64,000 bases of DNA, taken from the IMG/VR virus record IMGVR_UViG_3300034279_000829. One strand, 5' to 3'. This document shows positions 1-64,000 of the stretch, piece after piece; position 1 is the first letter of the stretch, and the number at the start of each line of letters is the position of its first letter. The notes under the pieces are model-generated. The model was not told the origin of the DNA. It saw only the letters and a program-made list of their open reading frames with translations, and did no database searches. The stretch comes from an uncultured virus (IMG/VR IMGVR_UViG_3300034279_000829) (taxonomy: Duplodnaviria; Heunggongvirae; Uroviricota; Caudoviricetes). A program made the translations under genes and the position numbers.

Positions 1-361
1 ATGCGGCAAGTGCATCGGCTCGCTCCTCATCGGGCATGGTGCCCCAGACACAGACGGCTGGGATTCCGTAGTTCCTGGTCAGGTACTCAGTCGCACCCTT
101 GGCTGCGAACACACTGCCCGTGAACAGGACGGTCTGTCCCATCATCTCCTCGGCGGTGATCATGCAGGCGCGGTGCAGATTGGCTTCCTTGTTCAGTTCC
201 GCGGCGAGCTTCGTCTGGTTGAAGTCGCCGCCGACAATGTTGACCTTGCTTAGATCCAGCGACTCCACCCGGCTCAGCTTGCAAACAGGCGGCACTGCCC
301 AGCCGTTGGCGATGGCCCACTGGAGGTCGTAGTTACAGACTGACTCTTGATAGAACTGCAT
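1..361 (-). CDS. SF2 helicase C-terminal (RecA2) subunit, copy A, truncated by window edge
   Basis: Reads MQFYQESVCNYDLQWAIANGWAVPPVCKL..., matching 59878..60936. Preceded by TAAGGAG. Confidence 0.85.
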   Translation of the reverse strand, partial: MQFYQESVCNYDLQWAIANGWAVPPVCKLSRVESLDLSKVNIVGGDFNQTKLAAELNKEANLHRACMITAEEMMGQTVLFTGSVFAAKGATEYLTRNYGIPAVCVWGTMPDEERADALAA

Positions 362-864
362 GCGTCACTCCTTAGCATGGGCTTGCCGTCCATCCGAAAC
401 GGCGTGGCCGTGAATCCTGCGACCATCGCGCCTTGGTCTTGAAAGAACTTCAACATCTCAATTACCGGCTCGCTGCACTGCATGTGCGCCTCGTCCACAA
501 TGACGAGAGAGAACCCATTGAATCTGCGGTATCGCTTCTCGCCTTGGCGGCTGGACAGCAGCGTCTGCTTCGATGCGACCACCACCTTTGCCGGCCAGTA
601 GTCGCGCTCGGCAACGTAATCGGCCATCTCTATGTCGGGGTCAGAGTCTGTGACCTGACGAACCTTGTCAGCTGCCTGCCAGACAAGCTCACGCATCGGG
701 GCGATGATCAGCGTGCGTCCTTCGATGCGATCCGCGAGTGCAGTGAAGATCACGGTTTTGCCGGCGCCGGTGAAAAGCCCAACGAGCGTGGACTTCACAC
801 CGCGGCGCATTGCGTCCAGCAGCGATTCGATCACTTCCGTTTGGTAGTCGCGCAGTCTGAGCAT
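274..864 (-). CDS. SF2 DExH helicase N-terminal (RecA1) subunit, copy A
   Basis: LRDYQ Q-motif, TGAGKT Walker A, DEAH, TAT motif III. Start taken at MLRLRDYQ. Confidence 0.9.
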   Translation of the reverse strand: MLRLRDYQTEVIESLLDAMRRGVKSTLVGLFTGAGKTVIFTALADRIEGRTLIIAPMRELVWQAADKVRQVTDSDPDIEMADYVAERDYWPAKVVVASKQTLLSSRQGEKRYRRFNGFSLVIVDEAHMQCSEPVIEMLKFFQDQGAMVAGFTATPFRMDGKPMLRSDACSSIKSQSVTTTSSGPSPTAGQCRLFAS

Positions 865-888
865 GAAAACATCCTTGTTTTGAAGAAG

Positions 889-931
889 CCCGGGGGAGGG
901 CCGGTCGGAGGGTCCGGCCCTCAACCCCGGG
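889..931 (-). terminator. Long GC-rich hairpin between SSB and helicase (terminator/attenuator-like)
   Basis: CCCGGGG-GAGGGCCGG...CCGGCCCTC-AA-CCCCGGG, followed by a pyrimidine run on the minus strand. Nearly identical at 61465-61506. Confidence 0.55.
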
Positions 932-955
932 CGGCGCGTGTAACCGCGCCAGCAA

Positions 956-1315
956 TCAACGGAACTCAGCGAACTCTTCTTCCTCCGCCTGCGCCTCCTG
1001 CCGCTTGCCGCCAAGCAGCTGGACACGCTGAACCTGAAGGACAACCTTCGACCGCTTCTGGCCGTCTTTCTCCCAGTGCTGCTGCTCAAGCTCACCTTCC
1101 ACCAGCACCGTGGTGCCGCGGGTGAGGTAGCTCAGCACATTGCCGACACGCCAGTGGTCGCAGTCCAGGAACATCACATCCTGACTGCCGTCCTTCCGCT
1201 TGCGGCCGTTGATGGCGACCGCATACCGGGCAACTTCCGACTCGCCAACCATGCGAGACTCAGCGTCTCGGGTGAGGTTGCCAACACCGATGAACTTGTT
1301 AAACGAACTAGCCAT
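956..1315 (-). CDS. ssb: Single-stranded DNA-binding protein
   Basis: GNLTRD, GTTVLVEGEL, WEKDGQKRSK, acidic C-tail ending EEEFAEFR. Confidence 0.92.
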   Translation of the reverse strand: MASSFNKFIGVGNLTRDAESRMVGESEVARYAVAINGRKRKDGSQDVMFLDCDHWRVGNVLSYLTRGTTVLVEGELEQQHWEKDGQKRSKVVLQVQRVQLLGGKRQEAQAEEEEFAEFR

Positions 1316-1955
1316 GAGCAACGGCCTCCTTCTGCCAGTGGCGGACGAATTCCGCCTTGCACCTATCGAACACGCTGCGGTCGATGGCCTTCTCGCGAAG
1401 ACGCAACTCAACCTCAGACATCACCTTCCTCGCCGCAGCCTCGTCGGCCGCTTCAGCGATCTTGGTCTTCCATCCCTGCTCTCGCTGCAGCCCTGCAGCG
1501 GAGTTCGCCGGTGCCGGCCGACTGGTGGCCTGCACGCGGTTGTCCTCGCCATCGTCATCGGGTTCCCCACTGAACCCGCCAGTCAGGCTCATCAGCAGAG
1601 TTCGCTTGGCGTAAGTCACCGCCGATCCGAACCCCTGCATGTCACCCTTGCCGTTCACCAGCGGGGCAATGCCCGTGATGTACTGACCACTGGAGTGACG
1701 CAACGTGCCGACCAGCACCCACTGACTGCCGACCAACCCTGGCCGGAAGTCCGGCAAGGCAAGGCCGTTCTTTGTCAGCGGGCCACGCAACGAATCGCAG
1801 CAAGTCGCATAAGACGAGAACCGGCTTTTGAAATGCGGGTTCGCGGCGTCCAACTCAACGTGCTTATACTCAGCCTGTGCCTTTGCCAGCGCCTTGGTTA
1901 GCTCGCTGGTGTCGGGCGACGATGACGGTCCCAAGATGTTGTTGTTGTCAGTCAT
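1308..1955 (-). CDS. ERF-family ssDNA annealing protein
   Basis: ALAKAQ...NPHFKSRF, QGFGSAVTYAKR, GEPDDDG. Confidence 0.9.
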   Translation of the reverse strand: MTDNNNILGPSSSPDTSELTKALAKAQAEYKHVELDAANPHFKSRFSSYATCCDSLRGPLTKNGLALPDFRPGLVGSQWVLVGTLRHSSGQYITGIAPLVNGKGDMQGFGSAVTYAKRTLLMSLTGGFSGEPDDDGEDNRVQATSRPAPANSAAGLQREQGWKTKIAEAADEAAARKVMSEVELRLREKAIDRSVFDRCKAEFVRHWQKEAVAHG

Positions 1956-2806
1956 ACTGTGATTACCTCCTCCTCCTTCTTGTTCGCCCAATTCGGGAAC
2001 TGGAGTTCCGTGATCTCGCCCGCATCTGCGGACTCATAGACCCCCGTCTCCCGCCTCAGACGAACCTCCTCCATCACGCGGGTCATACGCAGGCCCGCCT
2101 CCTCAACGATCTCTGTCGGCAGATAGAAGACCCGGCATCCAAACGGAGCCATGGTCTGACAAAAGATGAACGGCATGCGGAAGTGATCCATGCCGAGAGC
2201 CATAGCCCCTTGGACATAGAGCCACTCCTGCTCCGCATAGCCGAAATCAATCGCGCTGCGGAACACCTTGTCCCAAGTGGACGAGGTGGACTTCATGTCC
2301 CACCACAGGCTCGGGGTGCAGCCGTCCGGTCGGACCTTGCACAGATGCCCCATCAGCTGGAAGAACACGGACACTTGCGTCTCGGTGGTCTGCTCAATCA
2401 GCTTTCTGGCCGCAGCGTTGGCCATGAGGTGATCCAGCATCATCTCAAACTGCCAGCCCTCTTCAGCGTTGCAGTCGATCAACCCCTTGCGCTCCGCCTG
2501 CTCTTTCCAGGCGTCGTACTTGGCGCCCCTCCGGTGGCCGTTGCTGGCCAGCACATCGGCGGGAGGGATGGCGAGAACGTCAGTCAACTTTTTCCCCTCG
2601 CACACCGCCGTGACGATGGTGTCCCACTTGCTGCCGGTGCGGGTTCCGGCGTTCCCCCCGAAGAGGGAGTAACCAAGATCCAGCCACTGCTGTGCTTCGC
2701 CGCCGTACTTGGCAACCGAGTGCAGGTAGCTGCGACCGAGAGCGTCGGTCTGCGAGTGGTAGTCCGTGTTGGACATGCCAATGATTTTCCGTGGCAAACT
2801 AGTCAT
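1952..2806 (-). CDS. PD-(D/E)XK exonuclease VIII (RecE-like)
   Basis: SNTDYH N-terminus, CKVRPD...WWDMKS, FGYAEQEWLY; next to ERF and SSB. Confidence 0.85.
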   Translation of the reverse strand: MTSLPRKIIGMSNTDYHSQTDALGRSYLHSVAKYGGEAQQWLDLGYSLFGGNAGTRTGSKWDTIVTAVCEGKKLTDVLAIPPADVLASNGHRRGAKYDAWKEQAERKGLIDCNAEEGWQFEMMLDHLMANAAARKLIEQTTETQVSVFFQLMGHLCKVRPDGCTPSLWWDMKSTSSTWDKVFRSAIDFGYAEQEWLYVQGAMALGMDHFRMPFIFCQTMAPFGCRVFYLPTEIVEEAGLRMTRVMEEVRLRRETGVYESADAGEITELQFPNWANKKEEEVITV

Positions 2807-2817
2807 CCGTACACCTC

Positions 2818-3051
2818 CTAGTAAGAAGCCGCCTCCGTGCGGCGAACAGACTCCCTCCGAAGACCGCGGCGGAACAGAACCGCCGCTCGGCCCAACTGTC
2901 CGAGAGCGAGAAGGGTGAGCAGAGTGCCCACACCGTGCAGAAAAATGACGACCACTAGCAAAGCCAGGACCGCCCCCCTTAGAATTCGGGAGAGCCACCC
3001 ACTTGGGGGGCCGCTTCGACCGACTCTATCCAATTGAGCTAGGGGTGCCAT
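2818..3051 (-). CDS. Small membrane protein whose 5' end is a tRNA-like sequence
   Basis: MAPLAQLDRVGRSGPPSGWLSRIL then a long hydrophobic stretch. Conservative substitutions relative to copy B (63401..63637). Confidence 0.6.
   Translation of the reverse strand: MAPLAQLDRVGRSGPPSGWLSRILRGAVLALLVVVIFLHGVGTLLTLLALGQLGRAAVLFRRGLRRESVRRTEAASY
3024..3048 (-). other. tRNA(Arg)-like 5' half (acceptor strand + D-arm); candidate att core
   Basis: GCACCCC-TA-GCTC-AATTGGATA-GAG next to a tyrosine recombinase. 26 bp identical at 63612-63637. Confidence 0.65.
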
Positions 3052-3061
3052 ATGCGAGCCG

Positions 3062-3089
3062 AGTATAGCAGGGGACTTGCGGGATCCAA
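3062..3089 (-). promoter_or_regulatory. sigma70-like promoter
   Basis: TTGGAT-N16-TATACT with a TG extension. Both boxes are conserved in copy B while the spacer varies. Confidence 0.5.
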
Positions 3090-3144
3090 AAGTGGGGGTA
3101 GTCTCACCCCCCTCAACCAGATCCACAAACTTTCCGAAAACAAC

Positions 3145-3960
3145 ATGACTCTCAGAGAGTTCGCGGAGGCTTACGCCCTCCAATCGGGGGCTAGCCCCGG
3201 CTACCGGGAGCAACTCATTGTGCTGACCAAGCGGCTCCCTTGGGGGGTGGCCGACTTGACCGTCAGCAACATTGATGCGTACCTCACGCATGCCCTTGGT
3301 CATCTCGCCGCCTCCACGGTGAACAACCATCGCCGGATGCTTAGCACCCTGCGACGAGCCGCCCTCCGAGACGGCCTTGTGGTGGACGATTGTACACGGC
3401 CGATCCGCCGTGTCAAGCACACCTTGCCGATGGTCCGCGCTTGGACCCATGACGAGATGCGGCACCTGCTTTCGGTAGCCGCGGAGATGCCGGGAAACAC
3501 CCTTCACTGCCCGCTGAAAGTTCTGCTGCCGGCGTGGATTCTGGTCGGCTACTCCAGCGGCTTGCGTCTGGGCGACATGCTGGCCATCACCCATGACTCC
3601 CTGAGAGGAGATAGGCTGGCTCTGATTCTGCGCAAGACCCGGCAACCGCATGTGATCGTCCTTGATCAGCAGGCCCTAGAAGCAATCCGTTCGCTTCCCC
3701 GGCGAGGGCCGAAAATCTTCGGCGGACTCGTCGGAAGGAGCCGGATCATAGTGGCCATGCGCGCGCTCGTCAAACGAGCCGGCCTCACCGGATCGGGCAA
3801 ATACCTGCGTAGAGCGAGTGCGACTTACGCCCAAATGGCTGGGATCGACCCCAGTGGACACTTAGGTCACCTGACCCCGGGCATGAAGCGGCACTACCTA
3901 GATCCGGTCATTCTCTCGGATCTGAAGAGGGCCGTGCCTAGCCTGGCAGGAATGCGCTAG
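3145..3960 (+). CDS. Tyrosine recombinase/integrase
   Basis: SGLR, RKT, KYLR (K in the H position of HxxR), LGH, RHY catalytic pattern. Confidence 0.85.
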   Translation: MTLREFAEAYALQSGASPGYREQLIVLTKRLPWGVADLTVSNIDAYLTHALGHLAASTVNNHRRMLSTLRRAALRDGLVVDDCTRPIRRVKHTLPMVRAWTHDEMRHLLSVAAEMPGNTLHCPLKVLLPAWILVGYSSGLRLGDMLAITHDSLRGDRLALILRKTRQPHVIVLDQQALEAIRSLPRRGPKIFGGLVGRSRIIVAMRALVKRAGLTGSGKYLRRASATYAQMAGIDPSGHLGHLTPGMKRHYLDPVILSDLKRAVPSLAGMR

Positions 3961-6900
3961 AACTGGTTGGTAACGCCCAGCATCTGGAGCGGGTCCATGG
4001 ACAGCTGCGCCTTCTTCTTGTCCCGGGCACGCTTGGCGGCCTCGGCCTGGATGACCTTATAGAGGAGGTACATCTGACGCTGCTCAGCGGGCATGGTCCG
4101 CAGGACATCCTCTGGGACCGTGATGTTTTCGTAGGTGCGGACGCCGGGAGTGGTGGACAGCAGGTCGTTGAGCATCTTCCTGGCGGCCTGCTGCTTAGCC
4201 CGCTCGGCAGAAATGTCGGTCACGCCAGAGCCGGAAACAAAGTTGAACCCGGTCTTCAGATACCGCTCCGCCGGCGAGAGTCTGTCATCCGTAAGCTGGC
4301 GGTACAGCCCCACGGCCCGCGATCCGAACGGCAGGAAGTTGACGGCGGCCTGCTCCAACGGGCGGCCGAACTCACCGAAGTCCCTCTCAAGGACTGAGTA
4401 CAGGTCGCTCATGTCTCGTCCGCTGTACAGCTGCCGATTGGTGATGTACTCAATCGGGGCCTTAATCAGCGGGTTGGTTTGCCCAAGAAGGTTGGAGCCA
4501 GTTTCTTGGAGTGTGTTGGCAAGGCGTGAGCTAGCCGTGGCTCCAACCCCCGGGGTGAAGAGATTGAAGAAGCTCTCCCACGGGAAGTCGATGCGAGTGA
4601 GGTATCGCTGCAAGTCGGAGTTCTTTGGCCCCAGAGCGTCCGGCAGTGGGATCGACGCCGAACGGCGCAGATGCTCGGGGATGAAGTTCTCCTCGGTCGG
4701 CTGCGTGCCGCGCGTCACGGCGCGGATGGCCTGGCCCTGCAGCCCGCCTGGGCGATACAGCAGGTTGTTGAAGATGCTCGGGAGAATGCCCTTCTGGAAA
4801 CTGTAGAACGGCAGCACGCGCTTCGCCCAGTTGCGCTCAAACGATGTAAACGCTTGGGGCGAATAATCGACCTGGCTCATGCGCACCACATCAGCCGCTG
4901 CGCCGGGGTCCACGCCCTTGCGCAGCTGGTTCAGGAACACGCCGCCTCGCAGCGCGTCCTCGGAGGCAGACCCAACTGCATCATTGAGAACAAGCAGCGG
5001 ATTGGTGTTTCGTTTCAGCGGTCGCTGCGTAACCCCTACGCCACGCAATCCGAAGAAGTCGTTGGCAAACTCAGGCCAAGATCGCTCGGAGTCGTAGAAC
5101 GCCTGCCCAACGCTCGGCCCATTGCCGGCCCCAAGCCACGTTCCTCGGATCTCCTGCTCGGGCAGGCCGCGAATGTCATCGAATATCGTACCGCCACCAA
5201 TGCGGTGCGCCCCAGACAGGTCAAGGTACTGCGCCACCCGCTGCTCGGGCGTAAGGCCAGCGAATCCAGGAGCCTGCTCTAGGCGGCGAGCCAGCGCGTC
5301 GTAGTTTCCGCGCGAGGCTTGCAGGGCCGCCCACCAGTCCAGCGGATTGAACGCATTGAACGTAGCTGCGTTGACGGCGCCAGAGTAGGTGTTGCGCGTA
5401 TGGAAGGACGGGCTTGCAAGTGCGCCGACTTTGAAGGCATTGGTGAACTGGTCAAGAGCGTTGACAACACCACGCTCAGCCTCGCCCAGCCGGGACGGGG
5501 ATGCGATGGATCGCAGGTCTTCGACCAGCCTTTCGGGCACAGCAAGGTTGGTTACATCGCCATTGAACCGCTGCCGCCACATCTGCCGGAAGTTGTTGGC
5601 ATCGTACCCAAGGCGGTTGGCTGCGTCGGTCAGCTGCACCATGCCGTCCTGCAGGCCCGCGGCGCCGACCGGCTGAACGGCGTCCTGGAGCCGGCGCGTA
5701 ATCCTGTCGGTATTGGCAAGGATGCGGTTCTGTCCTTGCTCATAACGGCGGAGGTTTGTCCACCCGGATGTGTCGAAGATGCCTGTGTTGTTCTGGGCAA
5801 ACTGCAGGTCCGATCCGCGCAGAAGATTGACAAGCTGATCCTGCCGCGACTGCATGCTCGCTGTTACTGGCTGCAGCAATTCCGCCTGCCGCTCAGGGTC
5901 AGCAGCAAGGAACTCCGGGGACATCTGCAGTTCGTCTAGCTCGCGCCGGAACGGGCGCTGGACGCCGATGGCATCGAACGCTTGATCCAAGAGATCGCGG
6001 GCGGGAAGCTGGTCGGCATTGATGAGAGACTGCTGGAAGGCCGCGGAGTCAAACGTCCTCGCCCCCGTGGCCGGATCGATCACGTTGCCGGTCAGCATCC
6101 GGAACGTGCGCTGGCCACCGGGAATGTCCGTGTAGTCTTGGCGAGTCCGGCCGAAGTTGTCCGTCGTTTCCAGTATCTTGCTGCCGCCGGCCCAAGGCTT
6201 TTCCACACGGCCCACGGCGTTTGGTCGATCTGGGTCAAGTATGCGCTGCCACCACTTCAGCTGTCTGGGGAAGAACTCTGTTCCGGAATCCCCTTGCCAA
6301 GTGGGCAGGCGCAACCCAGCTTGCTCAGCGGCCTCGGCTGCGAGCCGCGGAGAAGTGACATAGAGATCGCGCATATCGCGGAACTCTGGCACATTCTCAA
6401 GCACCCAGTCTGCCACGTTGTCGCCGGACGTTTTGCCAAGGGGCATGCCCGCAAGCGTTGGGCCTTGCAGCTGCGGGGACTCGGCGTAGTCAACCAGGGC
6501 GCGCTGGAGATCGGTGCTTTGGAAACGTCGAAGACCTTCGGGGATGGAGGTCGGCACACCTGCTGCGCCAGCCGCCCTCATTGCCTCTGCGGCCTCTTCC
6601 GCGTTGGCTCCCATCGCGCGCCGAAGCTGGCCAGTGCGAAGCAGTTCCTGCGCTTCGTTGGCACGGTCGGCTGCAGCCTTTGCAATGCGAGAGTCCCACT
6701 GAACGTCGGGGTTGAGAGCATCGCCCGAAGGGCCGTGGAAGAGGGCGTACGCGCGATTGACAATCGGAGCCGTGTAGGGGTTGCGCTTCGACGCCTCGCC
6801 CAGTGTGTCTAGTCCGCCGGCAACAGCATCCCCGAACTCCTGCCCAAGAAAGTCGGTGCTGAAACCAATGTTGGTTCCAGGGATGCGAACGTCCATTAAC

Positions 6901-7607
6901 CGCGCAGCGGGGGCATCTAGGTTATTTGGATCCACACCAAACCGCTCGGCCTGCTGCCGCCACCTGTTCATGGCATCAAGCGGATCGTCGGCTTCGGCTA
7001 TGGCTTGGCGTGGCGTAAGGTTGCGCAGATGGGATCGGATGCCTTGGCCCGCCTCCCGCTGTGCGGCCCCGCGCGCCGCCTGCTGGAACGTAGGCTCAAG
7101 CCCTTCGTACGCCGCCTCGGCAGCATTGCGCAATCTACCGGACGCCTCTAGCGCCTTGCCGGTTGGCGTCAACGCACCGCGGCCAAGAACCGAGAACGGG
7201 TTCATGTATGTCAGCGGATCAAGCAGCACCTCGGCCGCAAGCCCGCCGGCGAAATTCCCCCATGTATCTCGGGCGCCAACAAGGCCATACTGGCGCATCA
7301 AGTCGCGGCCAGTGACGCGCTCGTCGGAAGAACCAAGGAAGCTCAACGGCCGGCCGGCCAAGATGCCGCGGATAAGCGCGCCTGGCGTGTCCAGAAGATA
7401 GCCGGCCGTCGAAAGCCCAGAAGACCCAGCCTCCGCCAAGGAGCGAAGCATCGTCTGCTTCTCTTCCGGCGGCAGCAGGTCTGCGATCTGCGCCTGTCGG
7501 CCAACGCCCGTGAACCCACCGTCCGGCTCCGGAAGCAGGCCGTCTTCCGCCTGCTGCTGCAGGATGCCGTACGGGTCGTAGAGGTCAAATAGCGGAGAGC
7601 GAGACAT
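3957..7607 (-). CDS. Large internal virion/ejection protein (1216 aa)
   Basis: Size, position at the end of the structural operon, helical composition, DYS..FT.FER..KRVLPFYSF-type C-terminal motif. Confidence 0.6.
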   Translation of the reverse strand: MSRSPLFDLYDPYGILQQQAEDGLLPEPDGGFTGVGRQAQIADLLPPEEKQTMLRSLAEAGSSGLSTAGYLLDTPGALIRGILAGRPLSFLGSSDERVTGRDLMRQYGLVGARDTWGNFAGGLAAEVLLDPLTYMNPFSVLGRGALTPTGKALEASGRLRNAAEAAYEGLEPTFQQAARGAAQREAGQGIRSHLRNLTPRQAIAEADDPLDAMNRWRQQAERFGVDPNNLDAPAARLMDVRIPGTNIGFSTDFLGQEFGDAVAGGLDTLGEASKRNPYTAPIVNRAYALFHGPSGDALNPDVQWDSRIAKAAADRANEAQELLRTGQLRRAMGANAEEAAEAMRAAGAAGVPTSIPEGLRRFQSTDLQRALVDYAESPQLQGPTLAGMPLGKTSGDNVADWVLENVPEFRDMRDLYVTSPRLAAEAAEQAGLRLPTWQGDSGTEFFPRQLKWWQRILDPDRPNAVGRVEKPWAGGSKILETTDNFGRTRQDYTDIPGGQRTFRMLTGNVIDPATGARTFDSAAFQQSLINADQLPARDLLDQAFDAIGVQRPFRRELDELQMSPEFLAADPERQAELLQPVTASMQSRQDQLVNLLRGSDLQFAQNNTGIFDTSGWTNLRRYEQGQNRILANTDRITRRLQDAVQPVGAAGLQDGMVQLTDAANRLGYDANNFRQMWRQRFNGDVTNLAVPERLVEDLRSIASPSRLGEAERGVVNALDQFTNAFKVGALASPSFHTRNTYSGAVNAATFNAFNPLDWWAALQASRGNYDALARRLEQAPGFAGLTPEQRVAQYLDLSGAHRIGGGTIFDDIRGLPEQEIRGTWLGAGNGPSVGQAFYDSERSWPEFANDFFGLRGVGVTQRPLKRNTNPLLVLNDAVGSASEDALRGGVFLNQLRKGVDPGAAADVVRMSQVDYSPQAFTSFERNWAKRVLPFYSFQKGILPSIFNNLLYRPGGLQGQAIRAVTRGTQPTEENFIPEHLRRSASIPLPDALGPKNSDLQRYLTRIDFPWESFFNLFTPGVGATASSRLANTLQETGSNLLGQTNPLIKAPIEYITNRQLYSGRDMSDLYSVLERDFGEFGRPLEQAAVNFLPFGSRAVGLYRQLTDDRLSPAERYLKTGFNFVSGSGVTDISAERAKQQAARKMLNDLLSTTPGVRTYENITVPEDVLRTMPAEQRQMYLLYKVIQAEAAKRARDKKKAQLSMDPLQMLGVTNQF

Positions 7608-7610
7608 ACG

Positions 7611-8897
7611 TTACTGCGGAGACAGCGGCGGGTCGTTGGGTATGGGTTGCCAAAAATCTCCAAACCATCCACCCCGCCCACCGGACCAGCCGGACGCATA
7701 GCCGTACCTGCGGATCAACTCCTCGCGGTAGGCGCGGTCGCTAAGCCGAGACTGCACGCCAGCCATCTCAGCCTGCCGCGCCAAGGCAAGCAAGGCGGCG
7801 TTCATGGAGCCAGCCTCGCGGCTGCCAAACCCCCCGCCCGGGAGCCACTGGAAGTTGTCAGCATCCGCAGCGGCGTTCTTCAGATACTCCTCTGCCTCCG
7901 GAGTTTGCAGGCCAACGGCCGCGTGGTAAGCCCCCGGGTTTGTGGTGGCGAAGGTGGTGCGCATGTTGTCCTTACGCCTATCATCCTCTCGCTTCATGTT
8001 CGCAAGAGCAATGGTGGCGGGCGCACCAGCGGCCTCCGCGGCCAGCCGTGCGGCTTCCACCGATGCCTTGTTGTCGCCGCGCCCGCGCTCAAGCATTGCC
8101 TGCGTCTGCGCTAACTGGGCCTTGAGGGAGGCGTCGGCCGCCGTCCGCTCTGATTGAAACTTTTGGTTTGTGGCCTCAAATTGCTGACGCGCCTGCTCCA
8201 TGCGCTCTTCAAACTCTAGCTTCCGCGATTGACGCTCCGTTGCCCACTTCTCTTGGTCCGCAGCGCGCACGGCCTCTCGCTCAAGCCTGGCCTCTTCGCG
8301 GGCAGCGGCCTGGATTTCGGCGGCAGACTTTCGGGCGGCCTCGCCCTCCGATCGGCGGGACTCTGCCTCCATCTGCGCAATAGCCAGCCGCGGATCGTTC
8401 TGCGAGTAACTGCGCCCGCCAGTGAGACGGGCCTCAATGACGCGCTGCTTCTGCTCGTCGCTCAGCATGTCGAATGCGTTGGACATGTTGGCCCGTGAGT
8501 TAGAGCTAGCCAGCATCATCTGCGACTTCCATCGATTCATTCGCTCCGTCTCTGCGGCATCGCGAGCATTTGCTGCGGCGTCGATTAGAGGGGCGAATTG
8601 AGAGGCGCGCTCCGTGGCGGTGAACTGCCCACGCGCGTCCTTTTCTCCGTGAACGGCAGCGCCCGAATCCGACAGCATCTGCTGCGCCTCGGACAGCGAA
8701 ACACCGGCCGCCTTTGCGAGCCGCCTCAACTTCTGCCGAACCACATACGGGTTATTAGCCCAGGCATTTTCGGCAAGCGACGGATCAACAGGCTCCCCTG
8801 CAACAGGCTCCACCTCCAAAGGAGAGTCGGCACCGACTAGGCCGTCAGCCAAGTCCATGGGAAAGCTCGTTGGCGGCGTGCGGCGGTCGTACGGCAT
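7611..8897 (-). CDS. Internal virion protein, coiled-coil
   Basis: A/E/Q/R-rich central coiled coil; context. Confidence 0.5.
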   Translation of the reverse strand: MPYDRRTPPTSFPMDLADGLVGADSPLEVEPVAGEPVDPSLAENAWANNPYVVRQKLRRLAKAAGVSLSEAQQMLSDSGAAVHGEKDARGQFTATERASQFAPLIDAAANARDAAETERMNRWKSQMMLASSNSRANMSNAFDMLSDEQKQRVIEARLTGGRSYSQNDPRLAIAQMEAESRRSEGEAARKSAAEIQAAAREEARLEREAVRAADQEKWATERQSRKLEFEERMEQARQQFEATNQKFQSERTAADASLKAQLAQTQAMLERGRGDNKASVEAARLAAEAAGAPATIALANMKREDDRRKDNMRTTFATTNPGAYHAAVGLQTPEAEEYLKNAAADADNFQWLPGGGFGSREAGSMNAALLALARQAEMAGVQSRLSDRAYREELIRRYGYASGWSGGRGGWFGDFWQPIPNDPPLSPQ

Positions 8898-8907
8898 GGG
8901 TCGGCTC

Positions 8908-10077
8908 CTATCGGGTCTGTGCGGCGTTGCGGCGCTGATCGCCCAGGGCTTGGAGCCTCCGGACTTCGCCCATGATCTGCTGGGCCTGCGGCACTTCGCC
9001 GCCAGCCTGCCGCCGCATGTCGTTCAGCTTGGCGATAAGGGCCTGCGCCTGAACGTGCGGGTCGGACGATCCCTGCGCCTGCTGCGGGGTCATGGCGTTG
9101 CGGCGCTGGTTGCTCAAGGCCATAAGGCGATTGATTTCCTGCATCATTGCAGCCGCCTCTGGTACTTCGCCACCAGCCTGTCGCCGCATCTGATTCAACT
9201 GCGCGATGAGAGCCTGCGCCCGCTCGCGCGGATCGTCTTCAGTCTGCACGGCAGGTACAGGCCGGGACTCTTCCGCAAGGTCGGCCGTGCCATCGGTGCT
9301 AGTCAGCCCTTCTTCGGGGGCTGGGGCGGCGGCCGACTTGTCTGGCTTCGGCTGATTGAGAGCGTTGTATGCGGCTGCGCCGGCCACAAGACCGCCGCCC
9401 ACAAGCAACGGGTTGATCCAAGATCGCGGGTCAGTGCTGCCTCCAGGCATCGGCTGCGCCGCCCCGCCGGCCTGCGCACCACCGCCTGCACCGCGGCCTC
9501 CGCCGCCAGCAGGAGCGCCGCGCGACAGCGTACGGTCGAACTGACCAGCGATGCTGTCTACGGCCTGTTGGTCGCGCATCGCAGTGCTGCTAGGGGCGCT
9601 CAGCGCAGCTTGCGATGGAGCCGGAAGGCCGCGCGGAGCCGGGGCCGGCAGGGCTAGACGGGATGGAGCCGGAAGGCCAGCGCGACCCGGATTCATTTCC
9701 AAGCGAAGCGGTTCTGGAGCCGGCAGGCCGCGCAGCCCCGATGGCACCAAGTCAGTAGAAAGCCGCGGGCCAAGCGCCGGGGTAGTGGTTGCGTTAGGCC
9801 CAAGCACAAACCCTCGTTCGCGCGTGTACGGAACCAAGCCCGTTGGCGGGAGCAGTTGACGCACCGCATCGCCTGCGTTGTCTCCTGACAAGGGCAGGCT
9901 CATTTGCTTGGCGGGGCCCTTGGTAGCCATTTCAGCCACCGCCTTATACACGGCATCGGGCTGCATGTCGGGGGTAATCACGCCGGCCTGGAGGGCCTTG
10001 TTGAGCCAATGAGAATTGACGCCAGTGGCGGCGGTGATCGAATTGACCCAGTCAGCAAGACGGGCGGGATTGGCCAT
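8908..10077 (-). CDS. Putative internal virion protein with duplicated C-terminal helical repeat
   Basis: Two copies of DP..AQALIA.LN.MRRQAGGEVP.A..M.E..RL.AL..QRRNA; Pro-rich LPAP repeats. Confidence 0.55.
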   Translation of the reverse strand: MANPARLADWVNSITAATGVNSHWLNKALQAGVITPDMQPDAVYKAVAEMATKGPAKQMSLPLSGDNAGDAVRQLLPPTGLVPYTRERGFVLGPNATTTPALGPRLSTDLVPSGLRGLPAPEPLRLEMNPGRAGLPAPSRLALPAPAPRGLPAPSQAALSAPSSTAMRDQQAVDSIAGQFDRTLSRGAPAGGGGRGAGGGAQAGGAAQPMPGGSTDPRSWINPLLVGGGLVAGAAAYNALNQPKPDKSAAAPAPEEGLTSTDGTADLAEESRPVPAVQTEDDPRERAQALIAQLNQMRRQAGGEVPEAAAMMQEINRLMALSNQRRNAMTPQQAQGSSDPHVQAQALIAKLNDMRRQAGGEVPQAQQIMGEVRRLQALGDQRRNAAQTR

Positions 10078-10352
10078 TACTTGGAACCTTTCTTCTTCGG
10101 AAGCTCGGGCATCTCTTCGCCGTCCCGGGGGCCGTCATCGTCCTCAACCAGCGGCGTGTTGGGCTTGCCGTGCATCTCTTCGTCCAGGTCGGCCAAGTCG
10201 TTCTTCGGACGCTTCTCAGCCTTCTCTTCGGAGCGGCCCAGCTTGGCGATAATCTTCTTTTCCTCTTCGTCGCTGGCGGCGAGCAGCTGTTTCACCAGCC
10301 GCTTCAGGCCCGCCTGCGTGAGATCATCCAGGTCAAAGTCGATGCGGGCCAT
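10077..10352 (-). CDS. Hypothetical charged protein
   Basis: Coupled by TAATG overlaps on both sides. Confidence 0.6.
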   Translation of the reverse strand: MARIDFDLDDLTQAGLKRLVKQLLAASDEEEKKIIAKLGRSEEKAEKRPKNDLADLDEEMHGKPNTPLVEDDDGPRDGEEMPELPKKKGSK

Positions 10353-10729
10353 TAGTTGAGTAACCCCCCAAGGATCGAAGTCGCGAAATTAAGCGCCGAG
10401 TTCTGGCGTTGCTGGGCAGACAGTAGGTTGTTGTATTGCTGCTGCTGAAGAAGCCCCTGAAGCGCCAGCTGCTGGGTGGCGTCGGACTGCTGGTCCTGCA
10501 TTGCGAATGCGTTGTTGTAGTCCTGCCCCTGCTGGCGATTGCTGTACGCCTGGGCAATGCCTTGGGCCATCTTCTGCGCGCCCTGCATGCCGGCGTTGCT
10601 CGCCTGTCCGGCGCCTCGCGACATGCCACCGCGGTCCATCTGTTTCATCTGCATCCGCGGATCGCCCATGGCCACGGCGCTGGCGTAGTCGTTGTTGAAG
10701 CCGGCCAGGATCTTGCTGTTAGGGATCAT
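10352..10729 (-). CDS. Gln/Ala-rich putative internal virion protein
   Basis: Ends ...ILGGLLN; coupled operon. Confidence 0.55.
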   Translation of the reverse strand: MIPNSKILAGFNNDYASAVAMGDPRMQMKQMDRGGMSRGAGQASNAGMQGAQKMAQGIAQAYSNRQQGQDYNNAFAMQDQQSDATQQLALQGLLQQQQYNNLLSAQQRQNSALNFATSILGGLLN

Positions 10730-10992
10730 TCAAACAGCCCCCGGAGAATGTTGCCCGCCGGCCCGAACACGCCATCCAAGCGGCTCTGCATGAGGTTGTT
10801 GTTCTGGCTCTGCGATTCAATCTGGTTCTGCAGGCCCTGCAGCGCATAGCGCTGGGAGAACTCCTTGGCCTGCTTGCCAAGCTCAGACTGCCGCCTAGCT
10901 GTAGCGAGGTCGTTGGTGGCCTGCGCGCCTTGCAGCAAGGATCCGAACACATCTTGGTGGCCGGCAGGGTATTGCGAATATGGGGACTGCAC
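10726..10992 (-). CDS. Gln-rich putative internal virion protein
   Basis: Ends ...ILRGLFE, similar to its neighbour; ATGA overlap. Confidence 0.5.
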   Translation of the reverse strand: MQSPYSQYPAGHQDVFGSLLQGAQATNDLATARRQSELGKQAKEFSQRYALQGLQNQIESQSQNNNLMQSRLDGVFGPAGNILRGLFE

Positions 10993-11014
10993 GCTCAGGT
11001 TCCGTAAGGTTTGG

Positions 11015-12283
11015 TCAAACCCTTCTCCACTGACCCATCGCCGGCTGCGGTCGGGAAGCCTCGCGCTGCAGCGAGCGCACCATGGCGGCGTAATACGGGT
11101 CGTTCTCCATCATGGACTGGTGGCGCGAGCTACGCTCTTGAGCGGCCTGCGCCTCCTGCTGCTTCCGGCGCGCGGCAGCAGCGTCCTCCATCGCCCATTG
11201 CTCCTGCTGCATCTGGGGGCGACTGCGGTAAAAAGTCCCCGCGGTGCGGTTGAACAGGTCATTCACGCCAGCAGTCGAAGCGGTGTAGTTCTGCTTGGCA
11301 TCACCCCAGCCGCTGTTCAGGTCGCTTTGAACCGTGCCGATGCGCGAGGCCGAATCCGAGTAGCCACCAGCCAAGGCGTCCAGAAGCGAGCCGGTCGGGA
11401 TGGGCTGTCCGGGGCGGTAAGTGCCCGCCATCGATTGTCGGTTGTTGTCGTAGAACTGATCCATTCCCGCCGCGGACGCGCCAAGGTTCATCTGATTGAA
11501 GTTCATCAGCGCGTTGTACGCATCACCGACCATGGTGCGAGGCGTATTGCGGGCGATTTCCTGGTCGGCGTTGAGCGAGTTCAACCCGGAGGAGTAGTTG
11601 CTGTTGAGTGAGTTGAGTTCAGCGCCGTTGTTGATGTCGCCGCGCAGGCTCTCAAGCATGCTGAAGCCGGAACCACCGCCGGACGGCATGCTGCCACCTT
11701 GCGATGGAGTGCCGGTCGCTCCGCCCACCAACCCAGGAAGCGCAGCAGACACATCCCGTCCGACCTGCATCGCAGCGCCAGACTTACCCAGCCCCGCCAG
11801 AGCGTTGTACCGCCCCACCCCCAGCTGGCTCACGGCGCTCTGGTTGGCTCCGGTCATGTCGGCCAGGGACTTCTGGTAGCCGTTCTGGTTCTGCGCCCAC
11901 GCCTGCAGGCCCTGCCCGGCCACGTTGCCATAGTTGGCCATGGCGGCAGTGCCAAGATTGGAGACAGCGGCCTGCCGGGCGGCTTCGGCAGCGGACGCCG
12001 ATTGGTTCATGGCCTGCGCGTTGTTCCATGTGTTGCCTAGTGCGTTGGCAACTCCGCCGATTCCGCTGGCCATGGCCGCGTAGTTCTGCGCGTAGCTGTT
12101 CCCAAGCCCCTGAAGAGCCTGGTTGTAGGAGCCATAGCCCTGATTGTATGACCCGTACATGTTTGCCAGCGCCCCGGCAAACTGACTTGGGGCGCTGGCA
12201 ACCTGGGTGCCAACTCCAGTGGCAAAGGGAATGGCGGTGTTCGCGCCCCACGGGGCAATCAGCGTGCCGTTGAATGCAGACAT
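11015..12283 (-). CDS. Gly/Ala/Gln-rich putative ejection/pilot protein
   Basis: Composition, AGGAG RBS, context. Confidence 0.55.
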   Translation of the reverse strand: MSAFNGTLIAPWGANTAIPFATGVGTQVASAPSQFAGALANMYGSYNQGYGSYNQALQGLGNSYAQNYAAMASGIGGVANALGNTWNNAQAMNQSASAAEAARQAAVSNLGTAAMANYGNVAGQGLQAWAQNQNGYQKSLADMTGANQSAVSQLGVGRYNALAGLGKSGAAMQVGRDVSAALPGLVGGATGTPSQGGSMPSGGGSGFSMLESLRGDINNGAELNSLNSNYSSGLNSLNADQEIARNTPRTMVGDAYNALMNFNQMNLGASAAGMDQFYDNNRQSMAGTYRPGQPIPTGSLLDALAGGYSDSASRIGTVQSDLNSGWGDAKQNYTASTAGVNDLFNRTAGTFYRSRPQMQQEQWAMEDAAAARRKQQEAQAAQERSSRHQSMMENDPYYAAMVRSLQREASRPQPAMGQWRRV

Positions 12284-12292
12284 GCGTGTCTC

Positions 12293-13513
12293 CTACCTGT
12301 TAATGCCCCGGAACGGGCGTTTCAGTGCCGACAGCGAAATCGCCGCCAAAATCAGCACTGCGCCGGCGGGCAGGGGACACCACAACTCCCGCTTCCCTGC
12401 CTCCTCCTTGAGCCAGCCGCAGATTTCGGGCAGGCGCTTCAGGCACTCCCACCCGCCCCACTGGTCCATCTGCAAGGCCCGGGCGTTGCAACTGCAGGTC
12501 GGGGAGGCGACGATCCCCACCAGACTCAGGAGCCATTTGAGTTCAGCCCCCGGCCCCGGAGGCGGCGGTTCCTCCCCGGCCGCATAAACGATTGGCTCCC
12601 CAACGGATGCTGGAGTGTAGCCGGGGCAGGGGTCCACAGAGATGGTGCCCGTGAACACGCCGAGATTGTCGCCAATCACCGTGTCGTTCTGTCGCAGGTA
12701 CAAACGGCCCGCCCCGGGCGTGTTGGTGTAGCTAGATCCGACCAAGAATGGGATGCCGCCGACTCCGATCCTGCCGATCAGCGCCATGTGGCACGGACCC
12801 GATACAACGTCTGCCGCAGGACAGCAGTTGCACGCCCCAGAGGTCACGCCGTTGGGGGTAGCTGTGCTTCCTGCCCCAGCCCAGCGAACCGTGCCCGCCA
12901 CATCGCCGCCGCTGGCGGAGGCCGTGATTGTGACGGCCTGCCCTGTCGTAAGGGTGACGCCTGTGTCCACCCAGGCGTTAACTTGGACATCGACAGTGAA
13001 GTTTGCAGTGGTGGCAGCAAGGCATCCGCTGGCCCCGCAGCATTTATATCCCGCAGGGCAGCAGTCATACACCAAGTAGTAAGGGTTGTTGCCGTAGCAA
13101 AAGGTGAAACCGTCCTCGCACAGATTGCGGCATAGGCCGTAGTCGCAATACTGGCTGACCGGGCAGCATGTGCCTGAGCAGCACTCCCGCTGCCCGGTGC
13201 ATGTGCTAACGCACGCTCCAGTGGACGTGTTGCATGCCTCGCACAGCAGCGTAGCGCACCCGCCGCTTGCAATGCCAGCCGCCTTAATGGCGTTGCAATT
13301 GCAAGACGCAGCAGCGACAGTCTGCCCGCCGCCGTGCGCGCACTGGCAAGGATCCACCACTTGGCAGGCAGCGGACAATGATATGCATGGCTGAGCACCA
13401 CACCCGGCACCGGTAGTGAATCCGCCCTGCCTGTAGGCGCACTCAGATTCGGTGGTCGCTATGCAGGTGGATCCGTCGCAGCATCGCCCCGCCTCACAAC
13501 ACGCGCAGGGCAT
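12293..13513 (-). CDS. Cys-rich protein with LecA/PA-IL-like lectin domain (receptor-binding candidate)
   Basis: Many CC/CxxC motifs; WVDTGV.L..GQAVTITA...ALIGRIG...F.VG...GRLYL..ND...DN.G.F. Confidence 0.6.
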   Translation of the reverse strand: MPCACCEAGRCCDGSTCIATTESECAYRQGGFTTGAGCGAQPCISLSAACQVVDPCQCAHGGGQTVAAASCNCNAIKAAGIASGGCATLLCEACNTSTGACVSTCTGQRECCSGTCCPVSQYCDYGLCRNLCEDGFTFCYGNNPYYLVYDCCPAGYKCCGASGCLAATTANFTVDVQVNAWVDTGVTLTTGQAVTITASASGGDVAGTVRWAGAGSTATPNGVTSGACNCCPAADVVSGPCHMALIGRIGVGGIPFLVGSSYTNTPGAGRLYLRQNDTVIGDNLGVFTGTISVDPCPGYTPASVGEPIVYAAGEEPPPPGPGAELKWLLSLVGIVASPTCSCNARALQMDQWGGWECLKRLPEICGWLKEEAGKRELWCPLPAGAVLILAAISLSALKRPFRGINR

Positions 13514-17570: not shown

Positions 17571-17845
17571 TAAGCAGTGCCAGTTCTCACGGAGGAGTAG
17601 ATGCGCCCGGCGGAGTCCTGGTAGACGAGATGCTCAGTGGTTCCGTTTTGGTAGCGGAACGCAGCACGCACAGGCGAGGTGGTGGAGTCGGCCGATGTGA
17701 ACGTGATGGCCTGCGTCCCGGGTCTGGCCGTCAACTGGCCGGGAACCAAGCACTGCAGGTTCACCTGCTCAACCGCTGCGCCTGCCGGGATGGAGTACGG
17801 CGAAGCGTTGGTGACGAGGCCCGGCCATTTGTCGATGACGATCAT
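17570..17845 (-). CDS. Small tail protein resembling the N-terminus of nozzle proteins
   Basis: WPGLVTNASPYSIPAGAA..QVN....GQLTARPG; TAATG-coupled to the next gene. Confidence 0.55.
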   Translation of the reverse strand: MIVIDKWPGLVTNASPYSIPAGAAVEQVNLQCLVPGQLTARPGTQAITFTSADSTTSPVRAAFRYQNGTTEHLVYQDSAGRIYSSVRTGTA

Positions 17846-18978: not shown

Positions 18979-19220
18979 CAGCCTTCACCTGCAAGTCTGG
19001 CTTGATAAGCCTGGATTACTTCGGGCGTCCAAACGGTGGTGGCAATAGCGACTACGCGCGCGTCCTGGCCAGCCAAGTCATCGCCCGGCGCAAGTGTGTG
19101 GCGGTGGTAAGAGCGCGCTATCTCCGCGCCGTCCTCCGCAACGACAGTGGCCTCGCGAATAGACAAGACTCCGCGACTGTCAACAGTGATAGAATCGATC
19201 TCAGAGTGTTTAGTGATCAT
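18978..19220 (-). CDS. Fibre-associated small protein
   Basis: EDG.EIARSYHRH.L.PG...VWTPEVI.AY pattern, directly after a fibre gene. Confidence 0.6.
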   Translation of the reverse strand: MITKHSEIDSITVDSRGVLSIREATVVAEDGAEIARSYHRHTLAPGDDLAGQDARVVAIATTVWTPEVIQAYQARLAGEG

Positions 19221-19222
19221 GA

Positions 19223-21631: not shown

Positions 21632-21947
21632 GAGCGTCCTGCAAGGGGCCTATAGGGCTATTGTCCACCCAAGTGACAGTCGCCTCGTCTAAGACCCAGC
21701 CATCGCCGGGGCATGGCGGAATGAAGGCATCTAGCGCCTCGTCGTAGCGGAACCCGCTGCCCGCGTAGTTTCCGCGAAATGGCCTGCCCTGCGGATGCTG
21801 GTTCCCTTGGGTCCAGTAGCTCGTCCGCAGACAGCGTTGCCCGCGCACCTCCGCGTAGACCGCCTCCCAGTCTCCCTCACTCTCGTCGCGTCCGACGATC
21901 ACCTCGGTGACGATGTTGTCATCGTTCACAAATGCGTAGTGCGCCAT
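21603..21947 (-). CDS. Conserved phage hypothetical protein
   Basis: MAHYA...[26 protein letters not shown]. Confidence 0.65.
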
Positions 21948-21955
21948 CTGGTTCC

Positions 21956-61439: not shown

Positions 61440-61548
61440 GGAACACATCCTTGTGTAAGAAAGACCCGGGGGAGGGCCGGTCGGAGGTCCGGCCCTCAAC
61501 CCCGGGCAAGGCGCGCGTGTTAACCCGGGACACCGCGCGCCTGGAGGA

Positions 61549-63396: not shown

Positions 63397-63400
63397 CAGT

Positions 63401-63637
63401 TCACCTCCGTTGTGAAGAAGCCGCCTCCGTGCGGCGCACCGAATCCCTCCAACGCCGGAACGCAACAAGCGCCCGGCCAAACTGTCCAAGAGCGAGGAAC
63501 ACCATGGCCGTGGCCGTGGCGTGAAAGAAAAGCAGCAAGACCAGAATGGTCATCGCCGCTGCGCCTAGAATTCGGGAGAGCCACCCGCTCGGGGGGCCGC
63601 TTCGACCGATCCTATCCAATTGAGCTAGGGGTGCCAT
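63401..63637 (-). CDS. Small membrane protein with tRNA-like 5' end, copy B
   Basis: MAPLAQLDRIGRSGPPSGWLSRIL plus hydrophobic segment. Confidence 0.6.
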   Translation of the reverse strand: MAPLAQLDRIGRSGPPSGWLSRILGAAAMTILVLLLFFHATATAMVFLALGQFGRALVAFRRWRDSVRRTEAASSQRR

Positions 63638-63730: not shown

Positions 63731-64000
63731 ATGACTCTCAGAGAGTTCGCGGAGGCTTACGCCCTCCGGGTAGGGGCTAGCCCAGGCTACAGGGAGCAAC
63801 TCGTTGTGCTGGCCAAGCGCCTCCCTTGGGGGGTGGCAGACTTGACCGTCGATAGCATCGATGCTTACCTGACGCAGGCCCTCGGTCATCTTGCCGCCTC
63901 CACGGTTCATAACCATCGCCGGATGCTCAGCACCCTGCGAAAGGCCGCCCTCCAAGACGGCCTGTTGGTGGACGATTGTACACGGCCTATCCGGCGTGTC
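63731..64000 (+). CDS. Tyrosine recombinase, copy B (truncated by window edge)
   Basis: MTLREFAEAYAL..., homologous to 3145..3960. Confidence 0.85.
   Translation, partial: MTLREFAEAYALRVGASPGYREQLVVLAKRLPWGVADLTVDSIDAYLTQALGHLAASTVHNHRRMLSTLRKAALQDGLLVDDCTRPIRRV

Follow-up and report, generated by a model that had tools for sequence, protein, structure and literature searches.

A tRNA-Arg 5' end beside a phage integrase: a probable reversed attachment site running through a small conserved reading frame

We have analysed a stretch of DNA of 64,000 nucleotides (nt) from an uncultured virus of the Caudoviricetes (IMG/VR record IMGVR_UViG_3300034279_000829), hereafter called the window, at a locus where the 5' end of a transfer RNA (tRNA) gene lies between a nuclease gene and the divergently transcribed gene of a tyrosine integrase. 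On the minus strand the parts follow one another as an extended -10-like box (TGCTATACT, 3070-3062), ten bases, an ATG (3051-3049) and the tRNA-like block (GCACCCCTAGCTCAATTGGATAG, 3048-3026); the ATG and the block open a reading frame for a small hydrophobic protein, and the block is ~95 nt from the start of the integrase gene. An earlier description made from the letters of this DNA without database searches (the sequence-only reading) had seen an ATG fused directly to a tRNA-Arg-like 5' sequence, and this was borne out to the base, with 23/23 positions identical to tRNA-Arg nt 1-23. We give a probability of about 0.7 to the reading that the site is the "reversed" attachment site (attP) of a temperate, ~60.6-kilobase (kb) phage of Planctomycetota that replaces the 5' end of a host tRNA-Arg gene. 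The window holds the region in two alleles, A near its beginning and B at its end; positions in the text are those of allele A unless stated otherwise, and feature coordinates are collected in Table 1.

The block was identified by scanning one genome per prokaryotic species for the 23-mer, which gave at least 120 matches. Among the matches listed, 77 of the 80 rows with a title belonged to Planctomycetota, the others being an Opitutales metagenome-assembled genome (MAG), an Acidobacteriota MAG and one unnamed bacterium. ARAGORN called a tRNA-Arg gene at 39 of the 40 host loci scanned (anticodon acg in 38, tcg in one), the fortieth being cut by a contig end and receiving no call, and wherever coordinates could be compared the gene started at the 23-mer match to within 1 nt. 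The block thus copies the first 23 nt of the phylum's tRNA-Arg(ACG) gene, and the earlier guess that a tRNA-Arg was concerned proved right when matched against bacterial tRNAs. Identity begins exactly at tRNA +1, and the triplet in front of it varies in relatives of the phage (ATG, AAG, AGC, CGG, AAC, AGA or CAC). The phage host is probably a member of the Planctomycetota.

A search of viral contigs for the exact 23-mer returned 22, of which 15 resemble the window, two have the ATG and the block with other sequence downstream, three lack the ATG and two contain true tRNA genes. As this set had been picked by the block itself, a weakness of any argument built on it, relatives were also sought through the integrase. 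All 14 close integrase relatives that were found by protein alone carry the exact block. A profile was then made from an alignment (A1) of six integrases that are 54-84% identical to that of the window and in which the R, H and Y positions are conserved by eye; in viral contigs it found 35 loci, 34 at 49-95% amino acid identity and one at 30%. Each of the 34 has a block resembling the 5' end of a tRNA, 49-108 nt from the integrase start and on the opposite strand, and the thirty-fifth has too little upstream DNA to judge. The blocks of the 34 are not all alike. The exact 23-mer is present in 19, four (L191-L194) match only to nt 18 or 19, three have another Arg-type 5' end, GCGCCCGT(A/G)GCTCAATTGG, and eight have GGGCA(G/A)CTAGCTCAGTTG, a Val-like block whose nearest genome matches are tRNA-Val 5' ends (18/19, one mismatch). 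Outside the block the different lineages cannot be aligned with one another; within it, tRNA identity starts at nt 1 and always reaches nt 18, and all 23 bases are kept exactly across integrases that are 54-57% identical to that of the window. Judged from these sequences, the same integrase family appears to have moved the cassette to other tRNA 5' ends, of the second Arg type and the Val-like type.

The architecture of the block and the bases behind it points to a recombination site. Past nt 18 the phage-specific bases repeat nt 5-11 in inverted form, and in several lineages the whole of nt 1-11. The inner seven positions of the two arms are complementary at 7/7 in lineage L198, at 6/7 in L196, L197 and L200, and at 5/7 in alleles A and B as well as in the host tRNA; over eleven positions the complementarity is 9/11 in L197. 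When 7-nt arms about a 7-nt spacer are summed over 16 lineages, 79/112 positions are complementary with the centre at nt 15, against 8-43 at 21 other centres. The right arm, moreover, changes together with the left arm between the Arg, second Arg and Val-like types. The 7-7-7 layout is by its sequence that of a tyrosine-recombinase core site, with a predicted overlap TCA(A/G)TTG at tRNA nt 12-18, and we infer that strand exchange would take place there. With the overlap at nt 12-18 and the right arm specified by the phage, identity to the tRNA would be needed over nt 1-18 and optional beyond.

It is also conceivable that the block works at the level of RNA, as a tRNA mimic at the 5' end of the early transcript (a processing signal, a defence decoy or a regulator like a tRNA fragment), and is no recombination site. 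The block does stand a few bases after a -10-like box, which would place it at the 5' end of an RNA, and a conserved hairpin follows it. We nevertheless hold such a function to be highly improbable, since it leaves unexplained the inverted copy of nt 5-11 in the right arm across a 7-bp (base-pair) spacer, the stop of identity at nt 18 in some lineages and the constant position beside the integrase start. Nor is there a tRNA-like fold or stability: over its first 94 nt the putative RNA is no more stably folded than shuffled sequences (z = +0.33).

The same fold score bears on a second proposal of the sequence-only reading, a decayed phage-borne tRNA-Arg gene whose remains came to serve as the opening codons of a protein gene and have no present role in integration. 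That proposal leaned on letters which are indeed present in copy A, GGGGGGC and, near the position of a T-loop, CCCGAAT; GGGGGGC, or GGGGTGC in some relatives, is complementary to GCACCCC, and CGAAT lies at roughly T-loop distance. The resemblance to a tRNA 3' part is not above chance. Aligned locally with tRNA nt 24-75, the 60 nt that follow the block gave P = 0.29 for allele A and 0.16 for allele B (2000 shuffles); the same test was marginal in L002 and L196 (P = 0.03, at different places, the figure for L002 speaking for decay), and in L190 the likeness is absent (P = 0.86). ARAGORN found no tRNA gene over the window. Rfam found no tRNA at gathering thresholds, none at E (expectation value) <= 1 in four relatives and, in the relaxed check on 2850-3150 at E <= 10, only chance-level matches to unrelated families. 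Both groups of letters fall in the residues S-R-I-L-R-G-A, where GGGG(T/G)GC encodes R-G-A and CGAAT belongs to S-R-I-L; since I-L-R is kept with other codons in other lineages, they are explained by constraint on the protein. A decaying pseudogene, moreover, would not keep 23/23 bases across integrases that are 54-57% identical. The recruited tRNA is therefore not supported, and we leave it a very slim chance.

The DNA in front of the block has the features of a promoter. The hexamer TATACT (3067-3062) is present in 14 of 16 unique close relatives, with TG two bases before it in 15 of the 16 and a constant 13 nt between box and block. A conserved TTGGAT/TATACT promoter had been described here; its -10 half stands, and its -35 half does not, TTGGAT not being conserved among the same 16 relatives. 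In other lineages the box, read by eye, is TACAAT, TATAAT, TAAAAT or a weaker one and lies 9-16 nt ahead of nt 1. Of 115 host tRNA-Arg genes, 41 have their best -10-like box 7-14 nt before +1 (ties counted), and 31 have none within 60 nt. In its position, then, the phage box appears to match the promoters of host tRNA-Arg genes, and it may be active as a promoter. Just upstream of it a terminator-like hairpin (3111-3094) is conserved in close relatives and is matched in stability by 1/200 shuffles; it could shield the promoter, and a tRNA gene rebuilt behind it, from upstream transcription.

The open reading frame (ORF) that runs through the block was said to continue into a hydrophobic protein of about 77 amino acids (aa) in both copies, and so it does: the products of alleles A and B have 77 and 78 aa, are 67% identical and differ by one in-frame indel of 6 nt. 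Each has a hydrophobic stretch between basic ends, with 19-residue Kyte-Doolittle maxima of 2.63 (A) and 2.36 (B). At 30/30 unique integrase-linked loci the block is followed by an ORF (59-89 aa) that has I-L-R, a hydrophobic stretch and LG(Q/H)(L/F); in this count L198 was translated by hand and one ORF is cut by a contig end. The ratio of nonsynonymous to synonymous substitution rates (dN/dS), pooled over 120 pairs of 16 unique close relatives for the stretch from block to terminal hairpin, is 0.47 when computed in the frame of the ATG and the block; the two remaining frames give 1.00 and 2.37. No indel other than that of 6 nt occurs, and a Ser codon alternates between AGT and TCG among close relatives. 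Both checks that had been proposed for the ORF, substitution ratios and its maintenance in further relatives, thus came out in its favour.

These results bear on the possibility that the site is an attP and the small frame not a gene, being open through G+C richness and conserved as the P' arm, with binding sites for integrase, excisionase and host factors and with hairpins. At this composition an open frame of 77 codons has by our own estimate a chance of ~9% per frame; the ORF belongs to no family in Pfam, PHROG or Protein Atlas (best Atlas score 0.80, uninformative); neither its ATG nor the TTG considered below is preceded by a Shine-Dalgarno (SD) sequence, and the ATG is not conserved; and the C-terminal codons are shaped by a nucleic-acid hairpin that is read in different frames. 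An arm of an attachment site does not account, on the other hand, for a dN/dS of 0.47 in the ORF frame only, for in-frame indels, for the switch between Ser codon families, or for a hydrophobic core with ILR and LG(Q/H)(L/F) motifs kept at 30/30 loci despite nucleotide divergence and a change between frames 0 and 2. We consider a non-coding frame improbable, and on the sequence evidence we take the small ORF to be a real, conserved membrane-protein gene.

Where its translation starts is less uniform. An in-frame ATG stands before the block in 14 of the 30 unique loci (at -3 in 12 and at -10 in two), and the other 16 have none there. Relative to the block the ORF is in frame 0 at 22 loci and in frame 2 at eight; frame 1, which contains a TAG at nt 8-10, is never used. 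At all 22 frame-0 loci an in-frame TTG is present at tRNA nt 16-18. In the window the A of the ATG lies 11 nt after the -10 box, so that this ATG is plausibly a near-leaderless start, and the ORF family as a whole does not depend on an abutting ATG. In L197 and L206 nearly the same small protein (…FIFLRWSGFA.T.L.LGQF.QAAVEYRRVYGR…) follows blocks read in frames 0 and 2, respectively. As indels between block and hydrophobic stretch shift the frame in this way, what the block encodes at the N-terminus is not conserved at the protein level. That the tRNA-like sequence forms the first codons of the gene is accordingly true of both window alleles without being a conserved feature of the family. Similarly, the notion that integration would split the ORF can apply only where the ATG is the start; it is missing at 16/30 loci, and the TTG would survive at the 22 frame-0 loci.

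Two hairpins lie within the ORF. The first (3012-2993) is paired in 112/112 cells of a 16-sequence alignment (A2), with a compensatory change from G-C to U-A in 6/16 sequences and a predicted energy of -16.7 kcal/mol (z -1.6); the second (2843-2828), over the last codons, is paired in 80/80 cells, with a compensatory change from G-C to C-G in 6/16 and -9.9 kcal/mol (z -0.9). Over both, 192/192 cells pair, 0/500 shuffles reach the covariation score, and a slid partner is paired in 40-59%; the lineages are related and the events in these counts not independent, so that the covariation is modest evidence. Before the nuclease gene the motif CCCCA(C/A/T)GGA(N)GGGG recurs in 14/19 lineages, in different frames of the ORF or past its stop codon, and for this reason the second hairpin is regarded as a nucleic-acid element. 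The two hairpins would probably limit read-through from a tRNA promoter into the early operon. The loop of the second contains a GGA (A-N-GGA-N), and another GGA is part of the SD sequence of the nuclease gene, a combination that presumably resembles the binding sites of CsrA/RsmA.

Elements that integrate into tRNA genes nearly always replace the 3' end, which leaves the gene with its own promoter. That orientation is not the one found here, as the block consists of nt 1-23 and the sequence behind it is not tRNA. A reversed attP is favoured because the block begins at +1, adjoins a divergent integrase gene, is kept at 34/34 loci while the flanks diverge, and sits in a 7-7-7 dyad centred at nt 15. 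According to the proposed mechanism, the phage carries nt 1-23 of tRNA-Arg(ACG) right behind its own extended -10 box and beside the integrase gene. The integrase would bind the inverted 7-bp arms, namely tRNA nt 5-11 and the phage-specified copy at nt 19-25, and strands would be exchanged within the 7-bp spacer TCAATTG at tRNA nt 12-18. The junction on the integrase side would then consist of the terminator-like hairpin, the phage -10 box, phage nt 1-18 and host nt 19-76, and the regenerated tRNA would be intact but run from the phage promoter. The opposite junction would place the small membrane-protein ORF behind the tRNA promoter of the host and nt 1-18. Integration would thereby remove the ATG of the window ORF and the phage promoter, and leave the TTG at nt 16-18 in place. 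Of the two explanations offered by the sequence-only reading, the first, in which an attP targets the 5' half of a host tRNA and promoters are swapped, is the one best supported by the 34/34 loci and the dyad, with no junction found in the collections searched.

A further step is possible and, in our estimation, unlikely as a whole: that the arrangement is a switch governed by the state of integration. In the circular genome a near-leaderless mRNA for the membrane protein would be made, and on integration the phage promoter would pass to the tRNA-Arg(ACG) gene while the ORF lost its ATG. This also supposes that the tRNA-Arg(ACG) gene is the only copy of the partner gene of the block, and that the ORF then lies behind the host tRNA promoter and two attenuating hairpins. 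If such a switch exists, the protein, or its full-length form, marks the excised or infecting state, and the supply of tRNA-Arg in a lysogen is under a promoter owned by the phage.

Several results weigh against a reversed attP. Integrated copies, which we infer to exist from the sequence of the free phage genomes, and the prophage junctions that had been called for as a check were not found in the genomes, metagenomes or lake-water runs searched. The integrase protein gave no match at E <= 1e-15 in 401 Planctomycetota genomes and no lysogen in five named genomes. The integrase profile, applied with six candidates per genome being scored, found distant homologues in 19 of 401 Pirellulales genomes at E <= 1e-25 (best 6.8e-42) and nothing at E <= 1e-40 in 398 Planctomycetales genomes. 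At 20 Pirellulales loci a tRNA gene was present at two, neither of them as predicted, and no D-arm motif, tRNA block or divergent tRNA adjoined the integrase gene. Among metagenome contigs none showed the junction that the model predicts, in which the block and the remaining tRNA follow the phage -10 box, and a scan for the block with its phage side gave seven loci, all of the attP type. Neither of the long viral records G1184 and G1186, in which host flanks were sought, contains a tRNA. Parts of the stretch occur in 24 public lake-water runs; in the contigs of four of these, compared over 2300-3800, there was no host-joined end at the core and only strain variants, in pieces of 97-628 nt that cannot show absence. 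The collections searched hold few copies of the phage family and perhaps lack its host. Other points on the same side concern the parts of the site. Pfam PF00589 (Phage_integrase) matches the window integrase at E 4.3e-4, below the curated cut-off. The Val-like block has no exact tRNA match in five genomes, 201 Planctomycetota genomes or the viral contigs. A simple sigma-70 scan, for a phylum whose promoter rules are poorly known, predicted no promoter at the phage box, the -35 being weak, and both hairpins within the ORF are by their z scores thermodynamically ordinary.

One contig of the lake-water runs (run X2, depth 3.3) joins the 23-mer (3026-3048) to position 3319, skipping 270 bases, with 23 letters on one side of the joint. 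This is probably an artefact of a repeat or a chimera.

Replacement of a tRNA gene from its 5' side does occur in Planctomycetota. In the complete planctomycete chromosome G007 two copies of a tRNA 5' sequence form direct repeats: a 39-nt 5' fragment of tRNA-Phe(GAA) lies behind what is apparently the original upstream region (L210, G007:C1:4934397), and the intact tRNA-Phe gene follows 40.6 kb downstream (L213, 4975018), with a 320-aa tyrosine integrase starting 62 nt from it on the other strand. The island between them (L242, L243) encodes a TrwC relaxase, ParB, a methylase with helicase, a KAP NTPase and a kinase-WD40 protein. The island is mobilisable and clearly exemplifies replacement from the 5' side, here at the anticodon loop. 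Its integrase has only remote similarity to that of the window (24% over 139 aa). Among the at least 120 genome matches to the 23-mer that were listed, three lack the rest of the tRNA behind it. G002 (L150, C31:102800-111300) has a 23-nt tRNA-Arg 5' fragment (993-1015) 5.9 kb upstream of the intact gene (6946-7020). In G003 a 23-nt fragment stands behind a promoter-like region, TTGCGA...TAAGCT, and is followed by a sulfatase gene, the intact gene being on another contig (L152 C184, L151 C90). G004 (L149, L153) has a fragment of ~45 nt whose upstream region is that of the intact gene, which lies on another contig. These fragments are what decayed 5'-replacing elements would leave, and none is tied to the phage family of the window.

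Between fragment and gene in G002 there are three RAMP-family genes, as in type III clustered regularly interspaced short palindromic repeat (CRISPR) systems, and a DUF7689 gene, without an integrase; a transposase gene comes after the tRNA. An ORF beside the intact tRNA-Arg gene of G003 was considered as an integrase and rejected, having no Pfam match and no similarity to the window integrase. In seven MAG contigs (L024, L026, L037, L042, L058, L084 and L103) the contig ends within tRNA-Arg(ACG) or a few bases past it. This suggests variable DNA downstream of the gene in natural populations, and ordinary 3'-side islands or assembly breaks may be responsible.

The block occurs twice in the window (3026-3048 and 63612-63634), both times on the minus strand, with none expected from 100 shuffles. 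Around it the ends of the window form direct repeats that are ~80% alike and spaced 60,575-60,592 bases (1-3420 against 60576-64000), each containing helicase, SSB, ERF and nuclease genes, the small ORF, attP and the integrase start. That the two copies are a duplication was rejected, since virus record G001 has allele B at its attP region and then window positions 3002-22000 at ~100% identity, i.e., the DNA that follows allele A; the copies are alleles of one locus. Each is found singly elsewhere as well, allele A in viral contig L020 and allele B in L012. The most suitable reading of the window is a walk round one circular genome of ~60.6 kb by way of two co-occurring alleles of the early-gene, attP and integrase region, apparently a product of assembly that passed through two mosaic variants of that genome with identical late genes. 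Downstream of the small ORF the nuclease gene opens a recombination and replication module, followed by genes for ERF, SSB and helicase (Pfam). A comparable record is G1184 (117.8 kb, the record of L201), which contains two different integrases of the same family (19632-20444 and 76541-77356) 56.9 kb apart, with a GCGCCCGTGG block at only one of the two integrase units. As in the window, two different phage genomes lie head to tail there, and the record may be a heteroconcatemer or an assembly walk.

Table 1. Positions of the features discussed, numbered from the first letter of the 64,000-nt window
Feature	Positions	Strand	Remarks
PD-(D/E)XK nuclease gene (DUF3799)	1952..2806	-	Pfam; SD AGGAGG 7 nt before ATG
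Small ORF, allele A, 77 aa + stop	2818..3051	-	basic N-terminus, hydrophobic stretch at residues 27-45, ILR and LGQL motifs, basic C-terminus
Hairpin GCCGC-ACGGAG-GCGGC then TTCTT, over the last codons of the ORF, before the nuclease SD	2828..2843	-	terminator-like or regulatory
Conserved hairpin in the ORF, ~13 nt after the block	2993..3012	-	seven pairs and one C.T mismatch
Exact copy of nt 1-23 of Planctomycetota tRNA-Arg(ACG); proposed attP core	3026..3048	-	identity to nt 25 in allele A
TCAATTG, tRNA nt 12-18 (D-loop); proposed 7-bp overlap/crossover	3031..3037	-	arms nt 5-11 (3038-3044) and nt 19-25 (3024-3030)
ATG directly before the tRNA block; candidate near-leaderless start of the small ORF	3049..3051	-	
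Extended -10-like box, TGcTATACT; its end is 13 nt ahead of tRNA nt 1	3062..3070	-	conservation in close relatives
G+C hairpin then ACTTTT, terminator-like	3094..3111	-	fold -14.2 kcal/mol, z -3.0
Tyrosine integrase gene, allele A, 271 aa, reading away from the att core	3145..3957	+	phrog_1, E 5.6e-16
Small ORF, allele B, 78 aa + stop	63401..63637	-	
tRNA block, allele B (exact 23-mer)	63612..63634	-	ATG before it at 63637-63635
Integrase gene, allele B, start only, cut by the window end	63731..64000	+	repeat spacing 60,586

A phage family that replaces the 5' end of a tRNA gene must supply a working tRNA promoter. If the reversed attP is what we think it is, a prophage would have control over an essential tRNA, and the strong tRNA promoter of the host would be handed to a phage gene. 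Comparison within the family gives a clear view of such a site, with the block, the 7-bp D-loop spacer, a right arm that co-varies and apparent retargeting to other tRNAs. A compact integrase of 271 aa, whose bacterial attachment site (attB) would be a sequence conserved across a whole phylum, is also a possible genetic tool for the Planctomycetota, which are hard to manipulate.

Integration at the 5' side of tRNA genes, and at the D-loop, is rare and already described. Keyword searches of the open-access literature found no Planctomycetota phage family with such a site, no 7-7-7 core at nt 15 and no ORF through the core, which does not prove their absence. Recombination with the 5'-distal part of tRNA genes is called "considerably less frequent" than with the 3' part in a passage of PMC6563490 that cites Zhao & Williams 2002 and archaeal cases, and the filters of Islander, as a section of PMC4383910 sets them out, provide for 5' fragments upstream. 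The reversed-orientation elements treated in that passage of PMC6563490 carry a 5' portion of the tRNA, as the window does, and a 5' fragment upstream and an integrase beside the regenerated gene would be expected here also. The window differs from them in that its evidence is an attP in free phage genomes, in its Planctomycetota host and in the conserved ORF that runs through the core.

In Klebsiella, islands upstream of arg2 use a site that takes in the acceptor stem's 5' half together with D-stem and D-loop, and the D-loop is called a novel sublocation in a part of 10.1101/2020.11.02.365908; on that partial account they share with the window a tRNA-Arg target and the position of the element upstream of the tRNA gene. 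They belong to another host phylum and, as far as the same excerpt goes, were seen integrated, whereas the window phage is known from attP alone; it mentions neither a promoter brought in by the element nor a gene spanning the core. The region of the tRNA D-loop has also been proposed as an integrase target in published automatic predictions, which their author, in the portion concerned, says await testing and for which that portion gives no core anatomy. Classical attP sites in tRNA genes use a gene's anticodon loop, its T-loop or its 3' end and resemble the window, so far as excerpts of 10.1101/2020.11.02.365908 and PMC1635311 describe them, in an adjoining tyrosine integrase, a block that ends at the end of the gene and a 7-bp loop with symmetric arms. 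They differ in that the window phage supplies the gene's 5' end and so must bring a promoter, and in that its symmetric site is the D-arm, centred at nt 15.

Two known systems link integration to a change in a gene or its promoter. In mycobacteriophage BPs and its relatives, integration reportedly removes the 3' end of the repressor. Their attP lies inside that phage gene, in a system of integration-dependent immunity outlined in part of PMC4557955, and in the window too the proposed attP core lies inside a phage ORF (block 3026-3048 within 2818-3051). The window gene differs from the repressor in encoding a 77-aa hydrophobic protein in which no DNA-binding domain was detected, and it is the 5' end and the promoter that would be exchanged. 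The integrated form of ICEKp1 uses the host tRNA promoter and the excised form its own, with stem-loops that attenuate read-through, according to the relevant passages of PMC13023037. In that element, as those passages have it, the 3' side of tRNA-Asn is used and the switched gene is int, whereas the window phage would switch the tRNA itself together with a small ORF.

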